Shown in pieces: positions 12,063 through 63,729 of a stretch of 64,000 nt of DNA. Each line of letters starts with the position of its first letter. The first letter of the stretch is position 1. Made by a program: the position numbers and the translations under genes. Origin of the DNA: a virus; IMG/VR virus record IMGVR_UViG_3300020424_000002, positions 64,001 through 128,000 of that record; one strand, written 5' to 3'. The notes beneath the pieces were generated by a model. It was not told the origin of the DNA, searched no databases, and saw only the letters and a program-made list of their open reading frames with translations.

Positions 12063-13038
12063 TATCTCTGTTTATACCCATGTTAGGGTCTCCAAAACGA
12101 ACCACTACGACTTTTCCTTTCTCATTCTTTACATAGACCTTAAACTTCTTGTTAGGGTTCTCAGAAGTCCTTATAGGGTCGTTTAGTGTAACTTTCTTAC
12201 CTTGATACTCTGCTTCTGTAATTACATGGTCATAATATCCTAAACATTCTGCACAACATTCTTCTTGAGCTCTTTTGATTTGGTCTGCTGTAGGAGCTCC
12301 TTTTTCACCCTTTTTCCTCATCTTCTCACCAGAACCAGCTTTAATTCTTGCCTTTTTCTTTCTGATATTGTCCCAGAGACCTTCGTCTAATTCATCATCA
12401 CCTAATTTTAAAAACATTCTATTTTTAATTTGTTTTTTATCGGATGCAGTCATTCCTGCTTGTTTTGCAAGAGAGTTGATAAATGCAAGACCATCTTTTT
12501 CATTTGCTTTGTATCTCCTACCCATTTCTTTCTTAAGACCATTTGCAATTATGTCAAGAACATGAGATACATTTGTCACTATCCTACCATCTGTCATAAG
12601 TCTTGCCTCATTTACAGACTGTAGTGAACCTTTTAAAACAACTTTTTTCTTTTCTTTTTCTTTGTTTTTTACAAGAGGTGGATGTTCGTCTTCGTCACCA
12701 GCAACAATCATACCTATTTGATTTATTAAAGATGTAACTACTGGTGTGGGTAATTGTGATAATTGTTGCATCACATCTTTAGATAGACCTTTTACATTTT
12801 TTAGTTTCTTTTTCCAAGAAGAGATTGCAGTCATATCTTTTTTTCTTGATTCATTCATTGACTGACCAGGCGTATCATCCATATACCTTTTCAAAAGTTC
12901 TGGTGTTCCTACTTCTCTATAACCAGAGTCTTCTTTCTTTTTCTTTTTACGAACAATAGGTTTATCAGTAGAAACTGCAGCTCCAGTTGAGTTTACTGGT
13001 GCGTCTTCGAACATTTCTTTAAACCTTTTTATTTTCAT
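11944..13038 (-). CDS. Modular basic protein, putative capsid-internal polyprotein (C-terminal DUF6321-like)
   Basis: MKIKRFKEMFE leader; modules separated by xNE/LDE/ITE; KVYV...RFGD...RKSFRARH.C...YWSC. Confidence 0.65.
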   Translation of the reverse strand: MKIKRFKEMFEDAPVNSTGAAVSTDKPIVRKKKKKEDSGYREVGTPELLKRYMDDTPGQSMNESRKKDMTAISSWKKKLKNVKGLSKDVMQQLSQLPTPVVTSLINQIGMIVAGDEDEHPPLVKNKEKEKKKVVLKGSLQSVNEARLMTDGRIVTNVSHVLDIIANGLKKEMGRRYKANEKDGLAFINSLAKQAGMTASDKKQIKNRMFLKLGDDELDEGLWDNIRKKKARIKAGSGEKMRKKGEKGAPTADQIKRAQEECCAECLGYYDHVITEAEYQGKKVTLNDPIRTSENPNKKFKVYVKNEKGKVVVVRFGDPNMGINRDNAERRKSFRARHNCSDPGPKWKARYWSCYQWRASAKVDN

Positions 13039-14126
13039 GCTACCTCTTCTAATGGTTTACTTAATTCTTCCCATGATGTTTCGTAGTCTGATTCTGCATC
13101 AATCCATTGTGAAACACCTAACTGTTCATATTTAGGTAAAAGTCTATCTGGAAGTAGTCCAATCTTCTTAAGATTAGGCATGACTCTGTTAAATAATAGA
13201 TATTGAAATTGTGAACTTAATGTATTTTCTTTAGACCATTCGTCTGTATATTCTAAATCAAATCCCCATTTTTCCCAAACTTCATATTGTTTAAATCTAT
13301 TTCTCATAACAGTACATGCTTCCAAACAAAAATCTTCTCTTTCTATTCTTTCTTTTTCTGTTAGTGTTGTAACAAAACTTGTTAAATAATTTACACCAAA
13401 TGTTACATGTCTTGCTTCATCACGAATTACAAGTCCTAACAATCTTTTAAATACTGGGTCTTGAGTAGTATCTCTTATAGTATTAAAGATTGCAAGTGCA
13501 AGTCCTTCTATGATAATTTGCATTCCTATGAATTTAAAATCCCACCTTGGGTCTGTGAGTATCTTATCTAGTAATGCTTTTAAATTTTTTCCAATAGGCA
13601 TAATTCTACCTATTCTAGTTTGTAAATATTTGTTAAATGCTTCTACATGTCTTGCCTCATCAAAGGTCTGAGAAGCTGCATATAGTTTTGCATTGAATGT
13701 TGGAGCACAACTTGTAAGTTGAGATGCAACTAGTAATGCACCTTGTTCACCATGCATAAGTTGACTTATAGTCCAATCTTGACTATCCTTAATAAACTGA
13801 CATCTATCTTCATAGGATAACTTTGCATAATCTTTATGGTTTTTCCATTGGTCATCCATAAACTTAAAACCTTCATCACTAAATTCTGGATAAGGAATAC
13901 TCCAATCTACATCCTTTTCTACATTCCATTCTAACTCTTTACCAAGTTCATATAATTTTTTTATACGATTATCTTGTACTTTGTAATCCCAGTTATAACA
14001 ACCAGTTAAAGGTGTGTTAAATATTTCTATCACATCTTCTGGATTTATTTCTTGTTCTACTGGATAGTTTGCACCTTCAAATAGTTTGTCTTCTAAAGGT
14101 GGATTGTCTACTTTAGATATTTTCAT
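13035..14126 (-). CDS. Ferritin-like diiron oxygenase (AurF/desaturase-like)
   Basis: HGEQGA, DEARH, IEGLA, DEARH paired ExxH motifs. Confidence 0.8.
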   Translation of the reverse strand: MKISKVDNPPLEDKLFEGANYPVEQEINPEDVIEIFNTPLTGCYNWDYKVQDNRIKKLYELGKELEWNVEKDVDWSIPYPEFSDEGFKFMDDQWKNHKDYAKLSYEDRCQFIKDSQDWTISQLMHGEQGALLVASQLTSCAPTFNAKLYAASQTFDEARHVEAFNKYLQTRIGRIMPIGKNLKALLDKILTDPRWDFKFIGMQIIIEGLALAIFNTIRDTTQDPVFKRLLGLVIRDEARHVTFGVNYLTSFVTTLTEKERIEREDFCLEACTVMRNRFKQYEVWEKWGFDLEYTDEWSKENTLSSQFQYLLFNRVMPNLKKIGLLPDRLLPKYEQLGVSQWIDAESDYETSWEELSKPLEEVA

Positions 14127-34857: not shown

Positions 34858-34885
34858 ATTATACTATCAATCTCTATTCTGTCAA
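34858..34885 (-). promoter_or_regulatory. Class B promoter (16-bp spacer) for uvsX-gp41
   Basis: TTGACA-gaatagagattgatag-TATAAT. Confidence 0.75.
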
Positions 34886-37362
34886 CTGAAAAAATTTTCT
34901 AGGGATGATACTGGTTCAGTTGACCACCCTATTTTTTCAAGTATTAGTTTTAGAGGTTCAATGAATGATTTGTCAAATTGCAAATCATAATCTATGTAAG
35001 GATGAAGTTCAAACTCTCTAGGTAAAGTATTGATAAATCCTATGACATTCTCTTTGATTGGATTTGGTATTTTTAAATATAAAAACTTCATATGTTCTCC
35101 ACTTGAAATGCTTTCATATTTCATTCCTATATCTTTTTTACCCAGATAATGATTATATAATAAAGATGCTCTGACATGCATAGGTGTAGATTTTTTGTAT
35201 ATGGTTACTGCATTTTCATATTCATTAATACCATTAACTCTTCTAGGGAATGCAATATCATTTGGTTCTAATCCTTTAAATTCTTTTCTTGCATCATCTA
35301 CAAATTCATGTACAAGTTTTTCATCACCTTTCATGACAACCTTCAATGCATCCTCTAGTTTATCACGAACCCATGCTGGTGTTGACGACTTTGCAGTTTC
35401 AATACCCATCATTTTAAGTTTAGGTTCGTGCAGTCTTACACCTTCATTATCATGTACATTGAGAATGTATCTTTTCTTTGCAGTCCAGATTGCTTTGTCA
35501 GCAATTACTTCACGACCCATGACCATCTTGTTTTGATATGCATTTGTATAATCTGCAAGCTCTTGATAACATTTATTAATAACATCTTGCATTTTACCCT
35601 TTGCAACTTGGTCAAGAAAATCTATAGGGTTTTTTGGTTGAACACTCTTGATTAGTTCATCAAATCTTACATAAATTGAATCTGTATCAATTGCAACAAC
35701 ATAATCATCTTCTGTATTTAAAATGGTATTTAAGTACTTGTTAACAGCCTTTTCGACCCATTTAATTGCTAGTTGACCACTACTTGTTACTGCTTCTGCA
35801 TTTGATAACTCAAAGTATCTAAACCACTCATTACCAATTGCACCATAGGCACTGTTCAAAGAAATCTTACGAACCATCTGGTTGTTATATGCAATTGCAA
35901 TCTTTCTGTTCAATTCTTGTTTTAGTTTAGGGTCATCTGTAGACTCAAACTCTTTCTGGTGTTCAATCATCTTATTCTTCCACAACACCCTTTCATCATA
36001 TAAGTTTTCTAGAATCTCTGGAAGAAATCCTTGTTTTCTTTTACTAAATCTTGCACCATTTGGTGTAGTTGCATAATGACTTTGTATGTCCAGTTCTTTG
36101 TCTAACATTTTATCAACTGATAAACTCATATCAGAAGATTCTACAGCAGTTTCTGGGCTGATATTGTATTGCATAATTAAATGTGGATATAGACTATTTA
36201 AGTCAAAAGATACTACCCACTCATGCATTCCTACTTGAGGTTCTTTAACATATGCACCCATGAACTTTTGTTTTTTGGGTTGTCCAGTTCTAGATGGTGG
36301 AACAATAATGTTCTGTTGTCTTAAACGATTGAAGATTAAAATATCCCAGTATCTTACTTGTCTGAATGCATCAAGATAATTACACTTTGCAGAATATGAC
36401 ATTGCAAGTAGTAATCCCATTAATCCTAGTTTATCTTCAAGTTCCTCTACCAAAGTCACATCACGAACATTATACTCTAGAAACTTTTGATAATCTTTTC
36501 TATAGAATAGATGCATTGCACCAAACTCTTCGTAATTGATTTTACCTTTACCAAGTTCTATCTGACAAATGTTTTCTAGTTTGTAACTATCTCGTCTTTT
36601 AAAAGTAAACTTTTGATAAAGTTGTAAGTAATCTACAACTTCAATACCTGTTAGTGTATATGCTTGTTGTTTCTTATTGAATGTATCCCACTCACGAACT
36701 GTGGTTATATTCCATGGAGATAGTTGGTCTGCAATTGTAGAACCAAATAACTTGTTGATTCTATTATAAAGATAAGTGATATCAAACTGGTCAACATTCC
36801 AACCAGTTATAATGTCTGGATAATTTTTTTTGTATTCTTCTAGGAAAGTTTTAAGAAGTTGTTTTTCATTTCGACAATGAAAGTATTTTATCGTTGGGTC
36901 ATTGTGTTCCCATACTTGTGTTCCGAACACATACTTGGTATCTTGTCCAAAAAACTTATATGTAATTGCATTAATTTCTTCTGCAGCTTCTGTAGGTTCT
37001 GGAAATCCATCTTCACACTCACACTCAATATCAAGATTCATAATACGAATGTGTCTCATCATCCATTCAATTTCTTGAGGGAAATACTCTGCAATATAAG
37101 CGTAAGGATGTCTTTCTATTCCATGAATATCGAACCCTTCTACATCTTTCCATTTCTCACGAAACTGTCTTGCTTGTGCAATGGAAGTAAATTTTTTGGG
37201 TTCTAGGTTTTTACCTTTGATACTTCTGAATGAAGAATCTTTATTTGTTGGAACATAGAAAGTAGGTTTGTATTGTACTTGTTTTTGAATATACTCCCCA
37301 TCCTTGAACTCACGAACAAGGATTAGGTTTCTATGTTGATAAACATTTGTGTAAAAGTGCAT
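34882..37362 (-). CDS. gp43: Family B DNA polymerase (T4 gp43-like)
   Basis: DIE exonuclease motif, FDLNSLYP, K.SLNSAYG, DTDS. Confidence 0.98.
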   Translation of the reverse strand: MHFYTNVYQHRNLILVREFKDGEYIQKQVQYKPTFYVPTNKDSSFRSIKGKNLEPKKFTSIAQARQFREKWKDVEGFDIHGIERHPYAYIAEYFPQEIEWMMRHIRIMNLDIECECEDGFPEPTEAAEEINAITYKFFGQDTKYVFGTQVWEHNDPTIKYFHCRNEKQLLKTFLEEYKKNYPDIITGWNVDQFDITYLYNRINKLFGSTIADQLSPWNITTVREWDTFNKKQQAYTLTGIEVVDYLQLYQKFTFKRRDSYKLENICQIELGKGKINYEEFGAMHLFYRKDYQKFLEYNVRDVTLVEELEDKLGLMGLLLAMSYSAKCNYLDAFRQVRYWDILIFNRLRQQNIIVPPSRTGQPKKQKFMGAYVKEPQVGMHEWVVSFDLNSLYPHLIMQYNISPETAVESSDMSLSVDKMLDKELDIQSHYATTPNGARFSKRKQGFLPEILENLYDERVLWKNKMIEHQKEFESTDDPKLKQELNRKIAIAYNNQMVRKISLNSAYGAIGNEWFRYFELSNAEAVTSSGQLAIKWVEKAVNKYLNTILNTEDDYVVAIDTDSIYVRFDELIKSVQPKNPIDFLDQVAKGKMQDVINKCYQELADYTNAYQNKMVMGREVIADKAIWTAKKRYILNVHDNEGVRLHEPKLKMMGIETAKSSTPAWVRDKLEDALKVVMKGDEKLVHEFVDDARKEFKGLEPNDIAFPRRVNGINEYENAVTIYKKSTPMHVRASLLYNHYLGKKDIGMKYESISSGEHMKFLYLKIPNPIKENVIGFINTLPREFELHPYIDYDLQFDKSFIEPLKLILEKIGWSTEPVSSLENFFS

Positions 37363-39532: not shown

Positions 39533-40027
39533 CTAAAATCCTCTACCATGTTCTGTTAAGAACTCTTTAGGTAATTTCTTAGTTCCAATAGAAACCTTTC
39601 TAGGTTTCTTTTCTTCTGGAATAATTTTAGTAATAGGAATACCAAGAATACCATCTTGTATAGATGCAGAACCAACTTCTACATCATCTGCAAGAATAAA
39701 TTTTCTTGACCATTTCCTAGCTGCAATACCAGTATGAACTGCATGACCATTTCCAACTCTTTCTGGATTTGGATTCTCTTTATCACCAACGACTTTTAGT
39801 TCATTTTCTTGAACTGTAATGTCGATATGGTCTTTACCGAATCCAGCACATGCAATCTCGATAACGAAGTGTTCGTCATCAATTTTTGTGATATTATAAG
39901 GTGGGTATGATTGACTATTGTTTCTTTGAACATCATCTATTCTTCGAAAGAAGTCATCCACACCAATTGAGAATGGACTTGTCAGTCTTAACATTTCCTG
40001 TAAGTCCAGCGTAGATAATTTTACCAT
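39533..40027 (-). CDS. Small heat shock protein (IbpA/Hsp20)
   Basis: SYPPYNI, IEIACAGF, GIA.R...F.L, A...DG.L. Confidence 0.95.
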   Translation of the reverse strand: MVKLSTLDLQEMLRLTSPFSIGVDDFFRRIDDVQRNNSQSYPPYNITKIDDEHFVIEIACAGFGKDHIDITVQENELKVVGDKENPNPERVGNGHAVHTGIAARKWSRKFILADDVEVGSASIQDGILGIPITKIIPEEKKPRKVSIGTKKLPKEFLTEHGRGF

Positions 40028-48237: not shown

Positions 48238-48635
48238 TACTTGTTAACTACTCCGATGTTGTACTTTGGAACTAAATCCCATTCGTTTTTCTCCCTATGT
48301 GGAAGAACTTTAATCTGACTCATTGGTGCAATTGGGTCTTGATGATTATTAGATATAACTTTGAGTAATCCCCATTCTTCTAGAAGTTTTGCAATAGCAT
48401 TTCTTCTACCGATATCAGATTCGACAAAAGAACTATCTTTACCATCAAGTAAAAACAATTCTTTAAAGTGGACAAGGTAGTATTTACCTCGTTTGTGTAA
48501 TATGTGGCAAGATTGGTAAAGTATTTTTTCTTTACGAGATGCAACTCCTATACGAGTTAATGTTTCTTTTACTTTTAGAAAATCATCCTGTTGTTTCAAC
48601 TCTACCTCTACCATATTGGAGAGGTCATAGCTCAT
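48237..48635 (-). CDS. regA: Translational repressor RegA
   Basis: DFLKVKETLTRIGVAS, LYQSCHILHK.G.YY.VHFKELF. Confidence 0.96.
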   Translation of the reverse strand: MSYDLSNMVEVELKQQDDFLKVKETLTRIGVASRKEKILYQSCHILHKRGKYYLVHFKELFLLDGKDSSFVESDIGRRNAIAKLLEEWGLLKVISNNHQDPIAPMSQIKVLPHREKNEWDLVPKYNIGVVNK

Positions 48636-49012
48636 TACTTTCTCCCACCTGTTTTCATTCTCTCTTTCATAATTCCTATTTCCTTTGCAGTAAGAATCTT
48701 GTAATATTCTTCTGCTTTACTCATAGAACAGTCATAATAAGTTTGGATGACTTTCATATCTTCCAACACTCTAGGTTTGTTCCATTTTGCAAACCTTTTT
48801 CTTTTTCTTAAAGTATTTAGGAAATAATGGAATTGTAGAGACGAATCTAGGTGCTTTCTAGAGTTCATTTCGTTAACATACATGATGCAATCTTGATGAT
48901 AAGACAAAGATTTATTAGTAAGAAATGGTGAATATGACCTTTCTGCAATATCATCCACCATGATATCTTTCTTGGAAAAGGTTATTGCAGTTACAAAATC
49001 AAAGGGATTCAT
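48635..49012 (-). CDS. gp62: Clamp loader small subunit
   Basis: Y.PF..N..LS...D....NEMN; RKRKRF.KW.K; KTGG; upstream of regA. Confidence 0.9.
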   Translation of the reverse strand: MNPFDFVTAITFSKKDIMVDDIAERSYSPFLTNKSLSYHQDCIMYVNEMNSRKHLDSSLQFHYFLNTLRKRKRFAKWNKPRVLEDMKVIQTYYDCSMSKAEEYYKILTAKEIGIMKERMKTGGRK

Positions 49013-49529
49013 ATATTCTATACTCTAAATTTCTTCTATCTTCGTTTGAATTATTTTTTATTACTTCTATTTTACCCATAAGATTCATATTCGTCAAGAT
49101 ATTATTTATCTGACTTCTTCTACCTTTTAACCAGACTTCGGACTGGGTATCTCCTCGGTCTTTGTGTCTCTGGTGTTCTATATCAGAATCACAAGTGAGA
49201 ACATAAACAGTTGCATCATAGTTATCAACTAACCATTCAATGTCTTGTCCTCTAAAATATCTATCCCCCTCAATTAGAATGTGTTTATATTTGGGTTGAA
49301 CCATAGTTATAAATTCTCTAAATTGTGGTATAGAACCATGGGATAGTTTATCAGTACCACCAAAAGTTTCTCCTTCTGGATACTGGCCAAGAACTAATAT
49401 ATCATCATGTTCTTGACACTTGAACAATGGCATAGGTTCTATTAGTTTTGGTTTAGGTAAATGAGAAAGCAACCCTCTCATGAGGGTTGACTTTCCACTA
49501 CATGGTATTCCACCAATTAAAGTTATCAT
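48999..49529 (-). CDS. P-loop kinase of the type linked to DNA base hypermodification
   Basis: GGIPCSGKST; LG.Y....FGGTD.LS; EGDR; R...RG..Q...W. Confidence 0.7.
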   Translation of the reverse strand: MITLIGGIPCSGKSTLMRGLLSHLPKPKLIEPMPLFKCQEHDDILVLGQYPEGETFGGTDKLSHGSIPQFREFITMVQPKYKHILIEGDRYFRGQDIEWLVDNYDATVYVLTCDSDIEHQRHKDRGDTQSEVWLKGRRSQINNILTNMNLMGKIEVIKNNSNEDRRNLEYRIYESL

Positions 49530-50515
49530 CCTATAGATTTACCATTTACATCTACTAGAATATCTTCTTTAGATAATCCATGATTTAATGTATCCTTAGT
49601 TGTTATTTGTCCTAAGAATCCACCAAATTCAAAGATATCATGATACTCTTCAGCAAGATGTTGTTTTATCCAATGAATTGTATATTCATATTTTTTTAAC
49701 CAAGCTTTTCTTTGATTTTTAATTCTTGCTGGGTCAACATTTAAAATAAAACCAAAGATTTGAACAGGCACTTGATAACTGTCATATAAGTCAATCATTT
49801 GTTTTATTTTTGAACCAAAGTCACCATCTGACCTTGCAAAACCAATCTGTCCTAAGTCGAGAACATATCCTTTAGCAGGAAAATCATTTTCTTCTAGAAT
49901 TTGATTTGCAATGTTTTGGTCAATATCTTTAACAAAATCATAAGAAGAAAAGTTTTTTCTAAACTTTTTAAAGATTGCAGTTCTTTGTGCTTTTGATTTA
50001 GAAGGTGCTATTCTATCTAAGAAGTCTTTAAGATAAGCATCATCATTCCTTTCACAACATCCTTGTATTACAAGTTGTTTTAAAGCTTGTGCATAATCTC
50101 TATCATCATTATCTTCTGCAATATCATGATACTCATTTGAAAGTATTCCATGTGCAATAGATTCTGCTGGATTGTCATACCGAACTACATCAACAATTAC
50201 TTTAGGTTGATTTAGTTCTTCATAACATTGTCTTCTATTGAACCCTGCTTTTAAATACAGATTATCATCCAGACCCAATTCACAAACCATTACTGGTTTA
50301 GTGTAATCATATCTATGTGATATTGAGTCTTTTAGTTTGTTTACATTAGTTCTTACAGTATCAAATACACGAGGTTGTAAAGAATTATTATCTTTATCCT
50401 TGTATATAATATCTGAAAGTTTTACTAATCTTCTATCGATGTATTGCACACCGACACCATAGTTGGGTTTGAAACCCTTCTTAGACCTTTCGAGGTCAAA
50501 GTTTATATTTCTCAT
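49526..50515 (-). CDS. ParB-like N-terminal domain protein
   Basis: Q.R......V..L..SI...PV.V.......L.AGFNR. Confidence 0.5.
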   Translation of the reverse strand: MRNINFDLERSKKGFKPNYGVGVQYIDRRLVKLSDIIYKDKDNNSLQPRVFDTVRTNVNKLKDSISHRYDYTKPVMVCELGLDDNLYLKAGFNRRQCYEELNQPKVIVDVVRYDNPAESIAHGILSNEYHDIAEDNDDRDYAQALKQLVIQGCCERNDDAYLKDFLDRIAPSKSKAQRTAIFKKFRKNFSSYDFVKDIDQNIANQILEENDFPAKGYVLDLGQIGFARSDGDFGSKIKQMIDLYDSYQVPVQIFGFILNVDPARIKNQRKAWLKKYEYTIHWIKQHLAEEYHDIFEFGGFLGQITTKDTLNHGLSKEDILVDVNGKSIG

Positions 50516-50608
50516 TTGTATTTCCTCATACTAGAAATGTTTATAATATGTTTAAAAATGTTCTCGTCTAATTGCGTTAGTTTAATTCTTAAACTCCAAT
50601 AAAAGTAT

Positions 50609-51613
50609 TTAGGAAAGAAAAGATTCTAAACTTCCCTTTTCTTCATACTTACTTGCATGTGGCCCAATAGGTTTTTCTGATTTACCAGCTTGTCCTTTAG
50701 TTGCAACATGTTCATCACAATACGCAACACACGACAATCTAACTCCATCACCTGTTATTGGAGTAACCCCATGTAATTCATTTGAGTCTGCAATCAAAAC
50801 ATCACCATCGTCAGCTTCAATTGCAATCCCATATCTTGGGAAACATAGATATGCACCCCCAAAATTACCGATTCGAAAAACACACATTGTGGTTAATCCG
50901 AATTCTAAATCCTTTCCATCAAGATGTGCAGACATCTTTGCAGTGCCTTCACTTGAGTATCTATTTGCAGATAAAGCTGTAATTGGAGCTCCACCTATTT
51001 GATATTGTTTTTCAATACATTCATCTGCAAAGTTTCTTTGTAGTTTCCATACTTCTGGAACACCTTTCTTTAATGCTTTTTCATTTTCAATTGCAATATT
51101 TTTTAGTATTTCATACTTAGGTTTGTTTGCTTTCTTTTCCATCCAACCACTTGCACCAATCATTCCAGTGAATCTACCTCTTTTATATCCTATTAGTACA
51201 GAATGTATTGCATTTGCAGATGCAATTCTATTAAACTCACCATTCTTTTTAAGTGGGTAATATGAGTTTGGTGTCCTTAAGACATAATCTTTACCTTCTA
51301 TCAATCCTCGTTTTTTCATTTCCTCTGGGTCAATAGGCCCAGCTGCATTTGCTCTCATGGTTGATACATCATCTATAGAATATAGAGTATCTTTTACTTG
51401 TTGATATATATCACCAGTATATGCATTCTTTACAATACATGCAAGAATAGGTTTATCAAATAATGAACCACTTGGTTTATATACTTTTATGATATCATCT
51501 TTAACTCCAATAGAAGATACAACAGTATCGTAAGAGGTTTCATCCAACCACTTACCATTCCATTTATCGAATGTTTCTTTAAATCCTAAGTCTTTGTTTG
51601 CAGTAATTTCCAT
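50609..51613 (-). CDS. TET/JBP-family 2OG-Fe(II) dioxygenase
   Basis: AHLDGKD (HxD), GG.YL.FP.YG.A.....GDVL..D...HG.TPI, RLS.V.Y; overlaps the C5-MTase gene. Confidence 0.82.
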   Translation of the reverse strand: MEITANKDLGFKETFDKWNGKWLDETSYDTVVSSIGVKDDIIKVYKPSGSLFDKPILACIVKNAYTGDIYQQVKDTLYSIDDVSTMRANAAGPIDPEEMKKRGLIEGKDYVLRTPNSYYPLKKNGEFNRIASANAIHSVLIGYKRGRFTGMIGASGWMEKKANKPKYEILKNIAIENEKALKKGVPEVWKLQRNFADECIEKQYQIGGAPITALSANRYSSEGTAKMSAHLDGKDLEFGLTTMCVFRIGNFGGAYLCFPRYGIAIEADDGDVLIADSNELHGVTPITGDGVRLSCVAYCDEHVATKGQAGKSEKPIGPHASKYEEKGSLESFLS

Positions 51614-52851
51614 GGTTCTAAGATTTGTTTCTTTATCTCCTCTACTATGTAGTACAACTGTAATGGTGCAACCATTAATCCTATTCTTGCACCTTTATCG
51701 TTGTAGTCTCCTGTCATCTTATAATCATTTGGTAATGTCATAAGTCTGACCATTTCTTTTGGTGTGTATATTCTCTTACCACTGTAATGAAAATGATTAC
51801 CACCCATGAACTTTGGTTGACATCCTTGTTCAGTTAAGGAATGTGCTGGAAGATGTTTTGGAACAATTCTTGACATATAGTAAGAATGTTTTTCATCTTC
51901 TGGTTTTAAATGACCATTTTTAATTTGTTCTTGAAACCAAGGTTTAACAATATCATCACCTATTGATATATAAGGTCTGTTACCCATTTGGTCTCTAACA
52001 CCATCTAATCCTTTACATGGCCCACAATGTTTTAAATCTGGGTCTGGATGTTTTTCAAATCCATTTACCCAATGTGATTTTGATGATTCGTTCATTGCAT
52101 CTACAAGATATTCTGCATCTTTAATGTTTTCTTCATCATCTATCAAGTCATCTATGGCTTCACCTATTGATACTCTTCGACTTGTTGGTTCTGGAAACAA
52201 ACCACTAAGACACATAAAGGGTAATCCAATTGCATCTAATACATCATCCCTAACTGCAATAATAAAAACCCTCTCTCTTTTTTGTGGTACTCCATGTTCG
52301 TGTCCTTTAGTAATTTTCCATGTTACTGAGTATCCTATCTTTTCAAAGTCTACAATCATTTTATTAAGATGGTCTCTTGCATAATCCATTGATAGACCTT
52401 TTACATTTTCACATACAATAACTTTAGGCATCATTTCTTCTGCAATTCGTATTTGTTCCCAAGTAAGGTCTTCAATGTTTTGTTGTTTCATTCCATATGC
52501 AACTTTTTCTTGATTCCACCCTTCTCTTTTGGAGCCTGCCATAGAGAAAGGTGGACAAGGTGGTGAACCATCTAAAATGTCTAATTCATATTTTTGAATA
52601 CCTGTCATTTCCATTATACTTTTTCCAGTGACTTCTTTAATATCTTTACATTCATGCACTGTATTAGGAAAATTTGCAAGATAAGTATCAACATGTATTT
52701 GTTGAAACTCATTCATATACTTTACATCACCGCCTGCAAGTTTATATGCACACGATGAACCACCACCGCCTGCAAAAAAAGTAATGTAATCAAACTCTTT
52801 TCTTGCAGAGTTTTTGTGTAAATCATCTAATGTGTATTGAAAATAACTCAT
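51586..52851 (-). CDS. DNA cytosine-C5 methyltransferase
   Basis: FAGGGG, GSPPC, ENVKG, PQKRERVF, motif X (RIG..V.P). Confidence 0.93.
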   Translation of the reverse strand: MSYFQYTLDDLHKNSARKEFDYITFFAGGGGSSCAYKLAGGDVKYMNEFQQIHVDTYLANFPNTVHECKDIKEVTGKSIMEMTGIQKYELDILDGSPPCPPFSMAGSKREGWNQEKVAYGMKQQNIEDLTWEQIRIAEEMMPKVIVCENVKGLSMDYARDHLNKMIVDFEKIGYSVTWKITKGHEHGVPQKRERVFIIAVRDDVLDAIGLPFMCLSGLFPEPTSRRVSIGEAIDDLIDDEENIKDAEYLVDAMNESSKSHWVNGFEKHPDPDLKHCGPCKGLDGVRDQMGNRPYISIGDDIVKPWFQEQIKNGHLKPEDEKHSYYMSRIVPKHLPAHSLTEQGCQPKFMGGNHFHYSGKRIYTPKEMVRLMTLPNDYKMTGDYNDKGARIGLMVAPLQLYYIVEEIKKQILEPWKLLQTKT

Positions 52852-53615
52852 CTTTCATTCATCCATAAATCTGGAAATGGTATTGCTTGATACATTTCTC
52901 CTTCAAGTCCCCATTGAAATTCTATATGTTTTTGTTCAGAAAAATAAATAGATTCTGGAAAAATATCAAATGCAACTGTTACTCTAGGTTTGTCTTCCAT
53001 CCATGGAGACGATGCATGTTGAAATCCACTTGCAGAGTATATTAACATATCATTATAGTCTTGATGCACCACCCACTCACTCTCTGGTTGTTCTGGCCCT
53101 ATTCTATAAGAAGTCGTAGATGGTTCTACATTTGCACAATAGAATCCATGGTAGATATGTGGATGCATATCTTCAATATGTTTATGAAAAGGTATATGGT
53201 CGTATCCTTTATCGTCTTTTCTTTTTGTATAAACATTAAACCATCCATGTATGTAATATGATTCACCAGCTTCTCTTACTTGAGGATTACTATAAAAAAA
53301 TCGATTTAGTTTCCAATAGATATCTGCAAATGGTCTTAAACCAAATGTAAAAGGATTATAGGTATTAAATTTTTGTACTTCTTTTGTATCTAATTCAAAT
53401 TGATGCTCTATTTCTTCTTTAGATAAATCTGCACCTTCTTTAGATGCACGAACATATGCACGAAGATTATTACTAAATTGATTTGGTGTTGCCATCCCAT
53501 CTTCATCATGTGCAAAGTATGGATGATTTTCATTTTCAATACACCAATTAGTAATAAACTCATGGTCTATTTCACAATTTTTTTGTATAAAAAAATCAGA
53601 ACTCTTTAGTTCCAC
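52848..53615 (-). CDS. 2OG-Fe(II) oxygenase-like protein
   Basis: WFN, H.H, HGFY, H...PW...PRVTVAFD. Confidence 0.65.
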   Translation of the reverse strand: MELKSSDFFIQKNCEIDHEFITNWCIENENHPYFAHDEDGMATPNQFSNNLRAYVRASKEGADLSKEEIEHQFELDTKEVQKFNTYNPFTFGLRPFADIYWKLNRFFYSNPQVREAGESYYIHGWFNVYTKRKDDKGYDHIPFHKHIEDMHPHIYHGFYCANVEPSTTSYRIGPEQPESEWVVHQDYNDMLIYSASGFQHASSPWMEDKPRVTVAFDIFPESIYFSEQKHIEFQWGLEGEMYQAIPFPDLWMNER

Positions 53616-53793
53616 TTCTATCCTCGTATTCTAGTTTAACAATAACATGGTCGTTTTTTCTGACACCTTGATTATAAAGGTGTGTATACATTTCATTTGC
53701 ACCTTTTCGTATTCCATTATATTCTCCCCATGAGTATATAGCAAAAAACGAAATGCAAAGAAATATAAATGTAATAGTTATTTCCATCGACAC
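53596..53793 (-). CDS. Small membrane protein
   Basis: N-terminal TM. Confidence 0.55.
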   Translation of the reverse strand: MSMEITITFIFLCISFFAIYSWGEYNGIRKGANEMYTHLYNQGVRKNDHVIVKLEYEDRSGTKEF

Positions 53794-54710
53794 TCCATCA
53801 TTAATTCAGTTAGACAAGCAACGATATTCACTTCTTGGTCAACTACAAATGCAGACTTATAACTGTAATCTGCAATGATAATTACAGCCTGTGGTATACT
53901 TTGTGGTTCTAATACATTGTAAAGTGTATCGTAAATCTTTCTAAATAATTTTACTGGGTCGTTGTCGATATTAGTTGCAACCCATTTTCTCATATCTGTA
54001 AATCTTTTTGCTTTGATATGACCAAGTAATTCTTGGAGACTTTCTTCTGCAATATTAGATAGTATTCCTACATCTATCTTACCACTTACTGCATATCTTT
54101 GTAGTTCATTAATGGTTCTACGAAAGTCTGGAAAATATTTCATAACTAATTCTTGTAGAACTTCGTTATTATATTCCACACCTTCATCGTCAAGAATCAA
54201 CATAAGTCTTGCAAGAAATACAGATGCAAGTCTTGGTCTTTCCTTTGGTGGTATCTTAAAGTCAATAACAGTGCATCTTGAATGCAAAGGTGCAATCAAT
54301 CTGTTTTTATAATTACATGTAAAGATAAATCTACAATTTTTATGAAACTCTTCTATGAATCCACGAAGAGCTGGTTGAGTTGATTGTGGATTAAGATAGT
54401 CAGCCTCATCAAGAATAACTACTTTGTTTCCACCACCAAGTGAAACTGTAGATGCAAAGTTTTTGATTTTGGTTCTTAGAACATCAATACCACTTTCCTC
54501 AGAACCATTGATTAAAATATAATCACAATTGTGCATTTCACATAATGCTTTTGCAATTGTAGTCTTACCTGTACCTGCTGTACCAGTAAGAATCATGTTT
54601 GGTATTTCGTCTTTGATATCAAAGAAAGTTTGTTTGATATCAGCTGGAAGGACACAATCCTCTATTGTTTTTGGTCGATACTTTTCAACCCATAAGAAAT
54701 CTTCATTCAT
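53778..54710 (-). CDS. gp44: Clamp loader large subunit
   Basis: LWVEKYRP, GTGKTT, DEADYL, SRC, PDFRR. Confidence 0.96.
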   Translation of the reverse strand: MNEDFLWVEKYRPKTIEDCVLPADIKQTFFDIKDEIPNMILTGTAGTGKTTIAKALCEMHNCDYILINGSEESGIDVLRTKIKNFASTVSLGGGNKVVILDEADYLNPQSTQPALRGFIEEFHKNCRFIFTCNYKNRLIAPLHSRCTVIDFKIPPKERPRLASVFLARLMLILDDEGVEYNNEVLQELVMKYFPDFRRTINELQRYAVSGKIDVGILSNIAEESLQELLGHIKAKRFTDMRKWVATNIDNDPVKLFRKIYDTLYNVLEPQSIPQAVIIIADYSYKSAFVVDQEVNIVACLTELMMECRWK

Positions 54711-54726
54711 TCACACACCTCATAAT

Positions 54727-54834
54727 AAAAAGAAGACTCATAATCCCACCATTATGAATCGAGTCAATCCCCAAGAGAGAGAACAGATTGACACCCTCAG
54801 ATACCAATGTCTAGTACCTACAAAAGTATTTATC
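54727..54834 (-). ncRNA. Candidate three-hairpin small RNA with late promoter and terminator
   Basis: GATAAATA; hairpins GGTAC/GTATC, GTCAATC/GATTGAC, GATTCATAAT/ATTATGAGTC followed by TTCTTTTT. Confidence 0.5.
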
Positions 54835-55504
54835 ACGAACCGAATGTTGAATCTGGTTCTAGTGCAATAAAATATTCAAGTCCTTTATTCTTTGCAATGA
54901 ATTGTGATAAACCTTTGGATGATACCTTAACAGTATATTCATCCTTTACCACTTTAATGTTTTCCATTTTAAAGTTCATTGAATATGTTTGTCCATCACC
55001 ATCCATGATTACTTCACTGAATTGATTAGTTGATGGATTCTTTTTATCTCTAACAGATAATGATACTACAGTCCCATTACTTTCCAGTACTAAGTCTGGA
55101 AGAGATAACACTGCACTTGCTTTTTGCAACTTAGTTAACAAGTTAGTATCCAAATCAAAAACTACTTCTGGGTTAGGCATAGTAATATCTTTTTCTGGTG
55201 GTGCAATAATCATTGATGCATCTGCATAATTATATGTTGCACTTGCACCATTACCACTAATGTTTACAGATTTTTCACCAAAGTCAAACTCTGCATCATT
55301 ACCTAACAATGAAATAGTTGCAAGAAACTCTGGTAAATCATATACAGAAAACTCACTTGTAAAGTTATCTGATATCGTTGCTTTACCAAAGATATTTTTC
55401 ATCGGTGAAATCGTTTTGATTTCACTTCCTTGTTGTACTGTAATACCATTATTGATACTACTAAAGTTTTGTAAAACTTCTAAAGTACTTTCACTTATTT
55501 TCAT
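54833..55504 (-). CDS. gp45: Sliding clamp
   Basis: MK.S..TL..L.NF..IN, F.VYDL.EFL, Y.IALE. Confidence 0.94.
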   Translation of the reverse strand: MKISESTLEVLQNFSSINNGITVQQGSEIKTISPMKNIFGKATISDNFTSEFSVYDLPEFLATISLLGNDAEFDFGEKSVNISGNGASATYNYADASMIIAPPEKDITMPNPEVVFDLDTNLLTKLQKASAVLSLPDLVLESNGTVVSLSVRDKKNPSTNQFSEVIMDGDGQTYSMNFKMENIKVVKDEYTVKVSSKGLSQFIAKNKGLEYFIALEPDSTFGS

Positions 55505-55813: not shown

Positions 55814-55841
55814 ATTATATTACAGAACTCGTATTTGTCAA
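55814..55841 (-). promoter_or_regulatory. Class B promoter for the clamp operon
   Basis: TTGACA-aatacgagttctgtaa-TATAAT. Confidence 0.75.
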
Positions 55842-62598: not shown

Positions 62599-63097
62599 AT
62601 TGCTTTTCTCTTTTCTGTTTCTTTTTCATTGCTCTTTCTAATTTTAATCTAGAAAGATAATCTATAAACAGAACACCTTGTAAGTGGTCATACTCATGTT
62701 GAAAACATCTACATGTCATACCACTAAATTCTAATTCTTTTAATTCTCCATGTTCATCTTGCCACCTTGCACGAATCCAACTAGGTCTGGAGATATGTGC
62801 AAAAATTCCATCACAGCCTGGAGTAAGACATCCTTCTTCCATTAATACAGTATCTTCTGATACTTCTAGTATCTCTGGATTTGCAATGAACATAGATTGT
62901 TCTTTGTTTGCACCTTTCATTACAAATACTGAACAGTCATACCCAACTTGATTTGCAGATAATCCTACACCACCATTATCAAACATTTCATCTATTAATT
63001 CATTTCTTAATTCAATAGGGTCTTTAAGTGGTTTATCAAAATCAAAAAATTTTGTTTTAGTTCTTAATAGTGGATGGTCTTTATGTAATAGTTTCAT
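62486..63097 (-). CDS. def: Peptide deformylase
   Basis: GVGLSANQVG, EGCL, QHEYDHL.G. Confidence 0.93.
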   Translation of the reverse strand: MKLLHKDHPLLRTKTKFFDFDKPLKDPIELRNELIDEMFDNGGVGLSANQVGYDCSVFVMKGANKEQSMFIANPEILEVSEDTVLMEEGCLTPGCDGIFAHISRPSWIRARWQDEHGELKELEFSGMTCRCFQHEYDHLQGVLFIDYLSRLKLERAMKKKQKREKQYARAREQFIQIAREHYRNNPKLPDEGTVQETDTVSQD

Positions 63098-63729
63098 GGT
63101 GCAATGTGTCTAAAATTGTTGTTTAAATCTATCCATTCATACCAACCAGTGACAACATATTTAGTTTCACTAATTGGTGGATTTCCTCTATGGATATGTG
63201 TATAGTGTGCAGGCCACACTAAGAAATCACCCTTTTTTGGTGGATATCTTAATTTTTGATTCAAAAATTCTGTTTCTCCACCCTCTTCAATATCATTAAG
63301 ATACAACATCCATGCAAGGACTCTTGTAGAATTACTAGGTGATTGTTCACAATGCCACACATGATATCCTTCGCCTGGTTGAGTTTTTTGTATTTTACAA
63401 TCAATTGCCATTGGTCTATCAAAGCCTGGATACTCTTTCATGTAACATTCTAAGATATCACCATTTATATACTTTAAAAAATCATGAAATTTATCATCAC
63501 CCATTATTTCATCATCTTTACTTGGTACAGCTGGTTGCATATGATTAAAACAAGTAGAGGTGTCAGCTTTTTGCAATTTAGTACCATCATCATTTTCTTG
63601 TCTTGTACCAACTGCTCTTACTGATTCACAAAACTTATAGTAGTTTATAAAGTCTTCTATGTGTTCTGGTTTAAACCAATTTTGAAAATGACCGATGAAA
63701 TCAGTATATTCTACTTTTCGTTCTTCCAT
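63094..63729 (-). CDS. 2OG-Fe(II) oxygenase
   Basis: GYHVWHCE, MLYLND..EGGETEF, WPA..TH.HRGNPP, KY..TGW. Confidence 0.88.
   Translation of the reverse strand: MEERKVEYTDFIGHFQNWFKPEHIEDFINYYKFCESVRAVGTRQENDDGTKLQKADTSTCFNHMQPAVPSKDDEIMGDDKFHDFLKYINGDILECYMKEYPGFDRPMAIDCKIQKTQPGEGYHVWHCEQSPSNSTRVLAWMLYLNDIEEGGETEFLNQKLRYPPKKGDFLVWPAHYTHIHRGNPPISETKYVVTGWYEWIDLNNNFRHIAP

Follow-up and report, generated by a model that had tools for sequence, protein, structure and literature searches.

A methylase, TET dioxygenase and P-loop kinase cassette between the clamp-loader genes of a marine T4-like phage: a candidate route of cytosine modification

The clamp-loader genes gp44 and gp62 of a marine T4-like phage (Melnitz/pelagimyophage-type) are parted by a tightly packed gene cassette. 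With about even confidence, this is read herein as a mobile module for the post-replicative modification of cytosine that would act in the order methylase, TET and kinase, with a ParB-like protein as accessory. The locus lies in a window of 64,000 nucleotides (positions 64,001 to 128,000 of the 146-kb IMG/VR record IMGVR_UViG_3300020424_000002). Going from gp44 to gp62, a 65-aa ORF is followed by a 255-aa protein with a 2OG-oxygenase fold, a DNA cytosine C5-methyltransferase (C5-MT), a Tet_JBP dioxygenase, a 329-aa protein termed X329, and a P-loop kinase (Table 1). An earlier note made from the sequence alone had pointed out this separation of gp44 and gp62 by a modification cassette, and all genes were found on the minus strand at the positions it gave.

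That note had presented the pathway as a new candidate, which does not hold: both the gene set and the phosphorylation of 5hmC were already published. Burke et al. 2021 (PNAS, PMC8256090) described, in a set of 32 contigs, C5-MT/TET contigs with a P-loop kinase and proposed 5hmC phosphorylation (contigs 49, 76, and 88), giving ParB, clamp-loader A, redoxin, HSP, and lysozyme as neighbors. The clusters of that study (5mYOX clade A/B, marine metaviromes) have in common with the present locus a C5-MT and a TET gene that adjoin in parallel orientation, with a small P-loop kinase after them, the marine T4-like hosts, the proposed 5hmC phosphorylation, and, when related loci are included, the same set of neighbors. 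In contrast to them, there is no AADT-like gene here, the helper is not a ParB recognized by Pfam, and there is an additional 2OG oxygenase ahead of the methylase. Hence, the idea of a kinase acting on TET-made 5hmC is not new, and the present locus adds to a published cassette type. What is added is the family placement of the kinase, a Leu/Arg split among the methylases, the association of X329, three genome sites of the cassette, and a genome without glycosyltransferase or amino-acid:DNA transferase. Biochemical work on this cassette type is limited to pairs of methylase and TET encoded on other contigs, and the role of the kinase is that of a candidate.

Table 1 Features of the cassette and its surroundings (positions within the window)
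Feature	Position	Strand	Basis or remark
Candidate sigma-70-type promoter TTGACA-16-TATAAT	55814..55841	-	12/12 consensus positions; consensus match only
gp45	54833..55504	-	PF09116
gp44, clamp-loader large subunit, upstream border of insertion	53778..54710	-	Gp44_lid E 2.6e-16, AAA E 1.8e-15
65-aa ORF, hydrophobic N terminus, no family	53596..53793	-	conserved only with cassette at gp44|gp62
255-aa 2OG-Fe(II) oxygenase-fold protein	52848..53615	-	no Pfam match; AF2 model
DNA cytosine C5-methyltransferase	51586..52851	-	PF00145 E 2.9e-49
Tet_JBP (TET/JBP, 5mYOX) dioxygenase	50609..51613	-	PF12851 E 2.2e-11, 43.7 bits versus cut-off 34.9
X329, 329-aa divergent ParB/sulfiredoxin-fold protein	49526..50515	-	no Pfam match; AF2 model
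176-aa P-loop kinase	48999..49529	-	PF18751 E 2.5e-7, 30.8 bits versus cut-off 27
gp62, clamp-loader small subunit, downstream border of insertion	48635..49012	-	PF16790 E 6.9e-12; phrog_225 E 9.5e-37

The genes are interlocked from one border of the insertion to the other. The stop of gp44 overlaps the 65-aa ORF by 16 nt, and the subsequent overlaps amount to 20 nt (65-aa ORF and 255-aa protein), 4 nt (255-aa protein and C5-MT), 28 nt (C5-MT and Tet_JBP), 4 nt (X329 stop and kinase start), and 14 nt (kinase stop and gp62), leaving a sole gap of 93 nt before X329. The gene calls, motifs, and overlaps taken together are indicative of a single translationally coupled unit. The gene of RegA follows gp62, and the sigma-70-type match, located upstream of the run DUF3310–gp45–gp44–cassette–gp62–regA, is likely the early promoter of this whole run, judging by its consensus. 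Independent contigs from Tara, ENA, and Logan carry the cassette arrangement in identical or almost identical form, and it is thus not an assembly artifact.

Among related phages, one of which is Melnitz, a cultured phage of OM43, the cassette occupies three different genome sites, as is expected of a self-contained module. It is inserted between gp44 and gp62 here, between redoxin and lysozyme genes in contigs L014 and L047 (a site that is empty in the present genome). In Melnitz and contig L036, its place is downstream of the polymerase. The DUF3310-like gene beside gp45, which had been suggested as a possible further member, remains next to gp45 in Melnitz and three IMG/VR contigs whose cassette sits elsewhere; hence, it is not part of the cassette.

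[quoted passage not shown] The Tet_JBP protein contains the 2OG/Fe(II) triad (H230-L-D232 and H281) as well as the 2OG-binding Arg (R292) and is 53% identical to its counterpart in Melnitz. The two frames are parallel and adjacent, well within the distance of at most five genes used by Burke et al., and TET adjoins C5-MT in all 17 related loci that have a TET gene, as it does in Melnitz and contig L009. Phage pairs of this kind make 5mC and then 5hmC at GpC (Burke 2021, PMC8256090), and by analogy with these relatives the pair described here probably has the same specificity. The palindromes of the genome give a divided picture. By observed/expected ratio, the five GpC-containing 4-mer palindromes rank first to fifth among all 16, and the genome contains neither GATC nor ACGT. 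This 4-mer pattern fits a protection of GpC, whereas the 6-mer palindromes show no such protection, the GpC-containing GTGCAC being observed 0 times versus 34 expected.

The C5-MT has the motifs FAGGG (residue 26), PC (98–99), ENV (148), and QKRER (190), with an SPPC-type catalytic motif (DGSPPCP, Cys99). Its nearest solved relative is the carboxymethyltransferase SpCmoX (8yf3; E 2.8e-68), although the target-recognition region, residues 258–349, is unalignable with it. The CmoX/CmoA/CmoY 5-carboxymethylcytosine system of Synechococcus phage S-B43 shares the SPPC motif, the marine T4-like phage background, and a ParB-type neighbor with the present locus; likewise, genes of the X329 family adjoin true CmoX-type genes in type III loci. 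In CmoX, however, Arg350 binds the carboxyl of Cx-SAM (Yang et al. 2025, Nat Commun, PMC12783734), and this residue is aligned opposite Leu392 of the C5-MT. Among 33 related genes, Leu occupies the position in 22 of the 22 homologs linked to TET or the kinase, and Arg in 11 of 11 members of the type III clade. Ten of these 11 Arg loci show a ligase and/or a CmoA-like gene in the contig DNA covered, but a phmmer search of the present six-frame genome with the CmoA-like and ligase genes of type III loci gave no match; TET and the kinase take the place of CmoA and the amide ligase. An identity of the C5-MT with CmoX was therefore rejected, and on its sequence the enzyme is placed in a sister clade of CmoX.

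The kinase carries GIPCSGKS at residue 7, FGGTD at residue 56, and EGDR at residue 87, the motifs named in the earlier note. The proposed comparison with base-modification kinases had a mixed outcome. [quoted passage not shown] Both proteins also match phrog_800 (kinase, E 4e-12; M6 gp54, 2e-39). On the other hand, the kinase has no match to the 5-HMUDK family PF18748 (HMUDK_HMUD1) at E ≤ 0.01, only to PF18751 (30.8 bits) and AAA_18, whereas M6 gp54 itself matches PF18748 at 7.7e-18. By these profile comparisons, the kinase is a remote homolog of M6 gp54 in a sister Pfam family. The two resemble each other in being small P-loop kinases of similar length set in base-modification clusters; they differ in that the genome described here lacks a dUMP hydroxymethylase, AADT, and PLP/radical-SAM partners. 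The presumed substrate differs as well, since the commercial 5-HMUDK, the sole one tested, is specific for 5hmU and has no activity on 5hmC (PMC6457204).

Genes that could finish the modification were looked for in the whole genome. Glycos_transf_1, Glycos_transf_2, ADDT, HMUDK_hel, and thymidylate-synthase families have no match anywhere in the 146-kb record, which extends to the full genome the earlier remark that the window holds no glycosyltransferase, and they are likewise missing among the precomputed Pfam matches of near-identical contigs, which cover about 42–146 kb. For the partners of a 5-HMUDK, namely an amino-acid:DNA transferase (ADDT/HMUDK_hel) and a pyrimidine hydroxymethylase, the genome gave no match to PF18724, PF18723, or PF00303 and no phmmer match to M6 gp51 or gp55. 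In the kinase-based pathways known to us, the kinase always has a transferase as its partner, and the present genome lacks one. With neither an amino-acid:DNA transferase nor a glycosyltransferase in the genome, the phosphate would be the final group or would be swapped by an unrecognized activity.

X329 had been called ParB-like although no Pfam model recognizes it, and this call is supported by structure prediction. Its AF2 model (pLDDT 92.3) consists of an N-domain (about 20–125), a helical region (115–189), and an α/β C-domain (199–329) without clear match. Foldseek returned Noc, ParB, PadC, KorB, and Srx at a probability of 1.0, and VIA-align gave Z scores of 10.1 (pNOB8 ParB-N) and 9.7 (Srx), with a further Z of 8.8; Atlas and BFVD place X329 with ParB_N and ParB/Sulfiredoxin clusters. 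Hence, the N-domain is modeled as a ParB/sulfiredoxin fold. A profile search of the PDB reached ParB/Noc at E 0.005–0.013 only, and none of 37 X329-family members matches the Pfam ParB models (including PF02195) at E ≤ 0.01. Compared with the CTP-binding and hydrolysis residues of ParB (box I QxR, GERR, and box III Asn), the conserved residues are QPR (47–49), GFNR (91–94, with R94), and N127. The setting resembles that of the ParB-dependent phage T-dioxygenase 5mYOX176 and its cognate activator ParB176 (O'Toole et al. 2026, PNAS, PMC13229309), where a ParB-fold protein is likewise found beside a 5mYOX and a P-loop kinase in the cluster. Compared with that system, X329 retains part of the NTP-binding motifs of ParB (QPR, GxxR, and Asn), whereas the Glu of GERR is replaced by Phe92, and the C-domain is a structured α/β domain instead of a short dimerization domain after a disordered linker.

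Within the preferred reading, the cassette would be transcribed from the early promoter, probably together with the clamp-loader genes. The C5-MT would methylate cytosines of finished phage DNA with SAM, probably at GpC, as its family and motifs suggest. The overlapping TET would then oxidize 5mC to 5hmC, which is consistent with the strict gene coupling and with published assays of related phage pairs. In a third, hypothetical step, the P-loop kinase might produce 5-(phosphoryloxymethyl)cytosine by phosphorylating the new hydroxymethyl group within DNA. X329 may serve as a DNA-bound accessory of the modifying enzymes, as a clamp or targeting factor; its family tracks C5-methyl- and carboxymethyltransferases as well as the kinase and not TET specifically. 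The 255-aa oxygenase would be an optional extra. The route C to 5mC to 5hmC to 5-phosphomethyl-C is still the most economical reading, its kinase step being hypothetical.

It is unlikely that the cassette instead ends at an oxidized methylcytosine (5hmC or 5fC/5caC) without any phosphorylated base in DNA, and that the kinase has some other substrate, which might be a free (hydroxymethyl-)deoxynucleotide, the end of a polynucleotide, or a different small molecule. PF18751 is described generically as "P-loop nucleotide kinase" and is not the curated 5-HMUDK family; the homologs encoded by mycobacteriophages and microbacteriophages are situated at the ends of the genome, a long way from any TET; and the lack of a downstream transferase fits this as well. 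Moreover, at eight related loci, some of them fragmentary, the kinase occurs without TET in the contig DNA covered, one being a 27-kb contig with the order C5-MT(Leu)–X329–kinase. Against it, of the 24 loci carrying both X329 and the kinase, 21 have the kinase immediately after X329, and the kinase accompanies the C5-MT/TET core to all three genome sites. The match to the DNA-acting M6 gp54 includes the substrate region, and similarity to nucleotide-kinase families is sub-threshold only (AAA_18 of Pfam; thymidylate-kinase phrog_761, E 2.5e-4).

A specificity of the kinase for 5hmU, as in the tested 5-HMUDK, would be accommodated if TET were a ParB-dependent thymine (or dual) dioxygenase activated by X329, the kinase a true 5hmU DNA kinase, and the methylase an independent anti-restriction enzyme. 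ParB-dependent T-dioxygenases are linked with P-loop kinases and can oxidize both T and 5mC (O'Toole 2026, PMC13229309), and a ParB-fold gene comes next after TET here. We nevertheless regard this as distinctly improbable. The T-dioxygenase clades have no adjacent C5-MT (PMC13229309), whereas TET adjoins C5-MT in every TET locus described here, unlike what is expected if X329 were the cognate partner of a C5-MT-less clade C1 enzyme; AADT and GATase, the usual cluster partners, are absent, and the X329 family lies outside the Pfam ParB model used for annotation in those studies. In addition, X329-family genes are present in a complete 236-kb phage genome without Tet_JBP and in TET-less CmoX clusters, which argues against a TET-specific activator. 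Very unlikely, finally, is a "methylase" that transfers a non-methyl group from a SAM analog, with TET and the kinase acting on the product. The kinship with a carboxymethyltransferase speaks for it, as does the invariant Leu at the cofactor-contacting position, a residue that differs from both the canonical Asn and the Arg of CmoX. Yet a hydrophobic Leu suits a methyl better than a charged group, C5-MTs paired with phage TETs make plain 5mC (Burke 2021, PMC8256090), and neither a CmoA-like synthase nor any other gene for making a cofactor is present in the genome.

The two genes next to gp44 are more restricted in their occurrence. The 255-aa protein, noted before as a 2OG oxygenase, shows this fold in its AF2 model (pLDDT 73), with Foldseek PDB matches to ThoJ, SnoN, 3bvc, and 2rg4 (E about 4e-5 to 3e-4, TM by target ≤0.60), of which 3bvc and 2rg4 are PF13759-type structures. 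It has no match in Pfam, including PF13759, at E ≤ 0.01, and an Atlas feature gives a lead to PF13759 only; on its model, it is a divergent relative of PF13759 (2OG-FeII_Oxy_5). The gene occurs in some lineages of the cassette only, being absent from the cassettes at other sites and from contigs L041 and L061, and can thus be no more than an optional component. H144, H146, H200, and R211 are invariant in its 19 homologs, in keeping with the His/His(Glu)...His and Arg set of the double-stranded beta-helix fold. Homologs of the 65-aa ORF occur in contigs L011, L012, L020, and L021, and the variant-B contig has a 65-aa gene in the corresponding position.

The window, bases 64001-128000 of a 146,136-bp IMG/VR record, has a G+C content of 33% and carries almost every gene on the minus strand. 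The positions of gp45, gp44, gp62, and RegA proposed in the earlier note agree with the Pfam and PHROG scans, and the genes enclosed by gp44 and gp62 are compiled in the table. Junctions across this run overlap by 16, 20, 4, 28, 4, and 14 nt; the single gap of 93 nt lies 5' of X329, the 329-residue protein of the cassette. A putative sigma-70 promoter (55841-55814), matching the consensus at 12/12 positions, is located upstream of DUF3310-gp45, and no credible terminator interrupts the run. The DUF3310 gene, suggested earlier as a further cassette member, is ruled out as such because it remains beside gp45 in genomes where the cassette sits at other sites. Independent contigs from Tara, ENA, NCBI, and Logan carry the identical gene arrangement; a megablast of the region gave no match.

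Genes of the gp44-gp62 run, in order of transcription, and of the variant cassette L009
Feature	Position	Strand	Remarks
gp44	53778-54710	-	upstream border
65-aa ORF	between gp44 and gp62	-	first in row
255-aa protein	52848-53615	-	after 65-aa ORF
C5 cytosine methyltransferase (C5-MT)	51586-52851	-	PF00145, E 2.9e-49
Tet_JBP dioxygenase (TET)	50609-51613	-	PF12851, above curated cut-off
X329, 329 aa	49526-50515	-	without Pfam match
P-loop kinase, 176 aa	48999-49529	-	PF18751, above cut-off
gp62	48635-49012	-	downstream border
L009 cassette (ENA ERZ27251063 k141_136457)	L009:106-5847		between gp44 and gp62: 2OG oxygenase, C5-MT, TET, choline-kinase/APH-like protein, cytidylyltransferase (PF01467), 424-aa protein without family

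The window is another member of a published type of C5-MT/TET/P-loop-kinase cluster. Metaviromes were screened for C5-MT/TET pairs by Burke et al. 2021 (PMC8256090), who describe a P-loop kinase "similar to that from PhiW-14, SP10, Vi1 and M6", list ParB, clamp-loader A, redoxin, HSP, and lysozyme as neighbors, propose a kinase step on TET-made 5hmC for contigs 49, 76, and 88, and report TET88 to be active on GpC 5mC. The related loci L014 and L047 contain exactly the same neighbor genes as these clusters. Both the cluster type and the phosphorylation hypothesis were already published in 2021; the hypermodification cassette of the earlier note is confirmed in its genes, including the Tet_JBP and kinase families for which it had advised searches (PF12851 and PF18751), its interpretation is supported in part, and its novelty is not. 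O'Toole et al. [quoted passage not shown] The window TET, in contrast, abuts one. The methylation and oxidation steps are strongly indicated, whereas phosphorylation and the nature of the end product are hypothetical.

The closest solved relative of the methylase is SpCmoX (8yf3, E 2.8e-68), the cytosine C5-carboxymethyltransferase of Synechococcus phage S-B43. CmoX is recognized by its SPPC motif together with Arg350, the residue binding the carboxyl group of Cx-SAM (PMC12783734). The window enzyme contains SPPC, with Leu392 aligned opposite Arg350. This position is occupied by Leu in 22/22 homologs next to TET and/or kinase and by Arg in all 11 homologs of the type III clade (X329 beside CmoX-type genes), 10 of which have an Asn-synthase/QueC-like ligase and/or a Methyltransf_25 (CmoA-like) gene visible in the available sequence. 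Neither a CmoA-like nor a ligase gene was found in the window genome by phmmer searches of its six-frame translation. Because of Leu392, the Leu/Arg split, and the missing accessory genes, an identity as CmoX is rejected, and the enzyme is regarded as a CmoX sister, most simply a SAM-using methylase. The Leu/Arg switch offers a one-residue marker for methyl- versus carboxymethyl-transferring phage enzymes. In IMG/VR contigs L026-L033, L037, L039, L040, L057, and L060, an X329-family gene is followed by an Asn-synthase/QueC-like PP-loop enzyme, a CmoX-type transferase (with the Cx-SAM Arg), and a Methyltransf_25 (CmoA-like) gene; these are 5-carboxymethylcytosine clusters of T4-like marine phages and have the same ParB-like companion.

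Aligned by hhalign, a profile built from eight cassette kinases finds M6 gp54 with a probability of 94% (E 1e-7, 122 columns), the match spanning P-loop, FGGTD region, and EG motif. [quoted passage not shown] Both proteins fall into phrog_800, whose label "terminase small subunit" is wrong, and they split at family level into PF18748 (M6 gp54) and PF18751 (window kinase). Commercial 5-HMUDK does not phosphorylate 5hmC (PMC6457204). Given this inactivity and the family split, a 5hmC kinase would represent a new specificity in a sister family. Searches of the kinase and of TET against PDB sequences with phmmer returned nothing useful. In PHROG and GenBank annotations, kinases of the 5-HMUDK type, M6 gp54 and Cr30 gp114 among them, commonly go under "terminase small subunit" or "adenylate kinase"; this propagated misannotation conceals such pathways. 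In the cultured T4-like Caulobacter phage Cr30 (L073, NC_025422 49000-63000), the stretch downstream of gp44-gp62-regA encodes a TET-like protein (annotated as SNF2 repair protein), a cysteine-dioxygenase-like protein, an inositol-1-phosphate synthase, a cassette-kinase homolog (annotated as terminase small subunit), and a nucleotidyltransferase. No C5-MT is among the annotations shown for this stretch, which may encode a thymine modification pathway.

X329 belongs to a solely marine-phage family, for which an exhaustive HMMER search returned 51 cluster representatives. The N-terminal part of its AF2 model (pLDDT 92) resembles ParB, Noc, PadC, KorB, and sulfiredoxin (Foldseek probability 1.0; VIA-align Z 10.1, 9.7, and 8.8), and its profile reaches ParB/Noc among PDB sequences at E 0.005-0.013, with GFNR aligned to GERR. 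Conservation extends to the box I QPR of ParB, the second GERR Arg, and an Asn akin to that of box III, and the GERR Glu is replaced by Phe. The Pfam ParB model matches 0/37 family members. Full-length matches in BFVD are uncharacterized or "ParB/Sulfiredoxin" proteins of cultured T4-like cyanophages; tblastn against cultured phages gave no match, phmmer against PDB sequences nothing useful, and the C-terminal domain (199-329) no PDB match above Z 5. In two close relatives (L020:7001-7411 and L021:6875-8363), only a 136-aa N-terminal ORF is left of X329, and the next ORF (268 aa or 332 aa) is unrelated and has no Pfam family; the C-terminal half of X329 is here replaced or disrupted.

The genomic context of X329 was surveyed in 49 distinct loci, each with an X329-family gene. 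A C5-MT-type gene occurs in the flank of 34 of these, TET in 17 (all abutting C5-MT), and the kinase in 24, in 21 of them directly after X329. Eight of the 49 loci contain the kinase without TET in the available sequence, all on fragmentary contigs, and these constitute the chief objection to reading the kinase as acting on 5hmC. Type II phages with C5-MT-X329-kinase (contig IMGVR_UViG_3300025685_000019 and relatives), which may lack TET, are represented by one 27-kb contig and one 40-kb metagenome contig. Relatives of X329 also adjoin CmoX clusters, two Dam-type methylases and an N6/N4 methylase (L046), a 424-aa protein shared with the L009-type variant, and, in a complete 236-kb genome lacking Tet_JBP, a DruA-like protein. 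Because of these other settings, a function as TET-specific activator is rejected at the family level; within the window's own cassette, X329 could nonetheless act with TET. From this context, X329 is therefore considered a general companion of DNA-modifying enzymes, especially C5-(carboxy)methyltransferases and the kinase, its family being common to methyl- and carboxymethyl-transferring systems. In L051-L054 (such as L052, located in a complete 235,812-bp IMG/VR genome without Tet_JBP), the order upstream of gp45 is peptide deformylase, DruA-like protein (PF14236, E 4e-19), X329-family gene, and a weakly GT-like 272-aa protein, meaning that a Druantia-type domain adjoins a ParB-like modification helper in phage.

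The C5-MT-TET core occupies three sites in related genomes: between gp44 and gp62 (window, L011-13, L020-21, L041/61, and L009), between redoxin and lysozyme upstream of the polymerase (L014-19 and L047-49), and downstream of the polymerase (L036 and the cultured OM43 phage Melnitz). In L014 and L047, the second site reads HSP20-redoxin-C5-MT-TET-X329-kinase-lysozyme. The window genome has no cassette there: HSP20, redoxin, lysozyme, and DUF6561 (39533-40027 to 37384) are followed by the DNA polymerase (34882-37362). Hence, the cassette has moved among sites inside the replication module. The genes 3' of TET differ as well, being X329 and kinase in the window, an unrelated 427-aa protein and kinase in Melnitz, and a choline-kinase/APH-like protein (HGDASIDN motif; PF01633 at E 0.0024), a cytidylyltransferase, and the 424-aa protein in L009. 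The 427-aa and 424-aa proteins show no similarity to X329, one another, or any PDB sequence. Judged from its genes, the L009 cassette looks like an activated-sugar or phospho-alcohol route to 5hmC; its gene order is akin to that of the contig 53 heptose pathway (bioRxiv 10.1101/2023.12.21.572611).

Six-frame searches of the whole record revealed no homolog of thymidylate synthase, GT1, GT2, ADDT, or HMUDK_hel, and none of these is among the precomputed Pfam matches on near-identical contigs (about 42-146 kb), the first 42 kb (structural module) being covered by six-frame searches alone. The absence of a glycosyltransferase noted earlier for the window, where a search of the remaining genome was recommended, thereby extends to GT1 and GT2 in all 146,136 bp. 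Unnamed proteins could hide a transferase. In a further reading, judged rather unlikely, the absence of any transferase in the genome makes the kinase product the end point, so that virion DNA would carry 5-(phosphoryloxymethyl)cytosine at methylase sites, and the Pfam-invisible ParB-like protein would be a DNA-loading factor common to this and the carboxymethylcytosine system. If true, the base would be natural, negatively charged, and so far unreported, and its maker the first DNA kinase specific for 5hmC. A real kinase step would also help to understand anti-restriction among the ocean's most abundant phage-host systems and provide an enzyme tool to tag 5hmC. The question is made testable by Melnitz, which is in culture and has the methylase-TET-kinase core.

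Across the whole genome, GATC (0 found, 545 expected), ACGT (0, 120), GGTACC (0, 22), and GTGCAC (0, 34) are absent, CCGG is found twice, and GGCC is 2.9-fold over-represented. The absences point to strong restriction-site avoidance beside enzymatic modification. The five GpC-containing 4-mer palindromes have the top five observed/expected ratios of 16 (Mann-Whitney p 0.001), whereas 6-mer palindromes show no GpC trend (p 0.91), several GpC-containing ones being avoided. A putative protection of GpC, as read from site avoidance, is half supported, by the 4-mers but not the 6-mers.

The AF2 model of the 255-aa protein (pLDDT 73) matches 2OG-Fe(II) oxygenases in Foldseek, including the PF13759-type structures 3bvc and 2rg4, and His144, His146, His200, and Arg211 are invariant among 19 homologs. 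Neither tblastn against cultured phages (no match) nor phmmer against PDB sequences (nothing useful) added relatives. Together with the 65-aa ORF, this oxygenase is confined to some lineages with the cassette between gp44 and gp62. Since the genome holds at least four 2OG-FeII_Oxy_3 and at least three 2OG-FeII_Oxy_5 genes outside the cassette (e.g., window 63094-63729, and 70104-70778), it belongs to a large group of paralog-like genes that marine T4-like phages typically carry. An AurF-type di-iron N-oxygenase gene is located at window 13035-14126, and a PP-binding (acyl-carrier) gene is listed for the same stretch on a near-identical contig.
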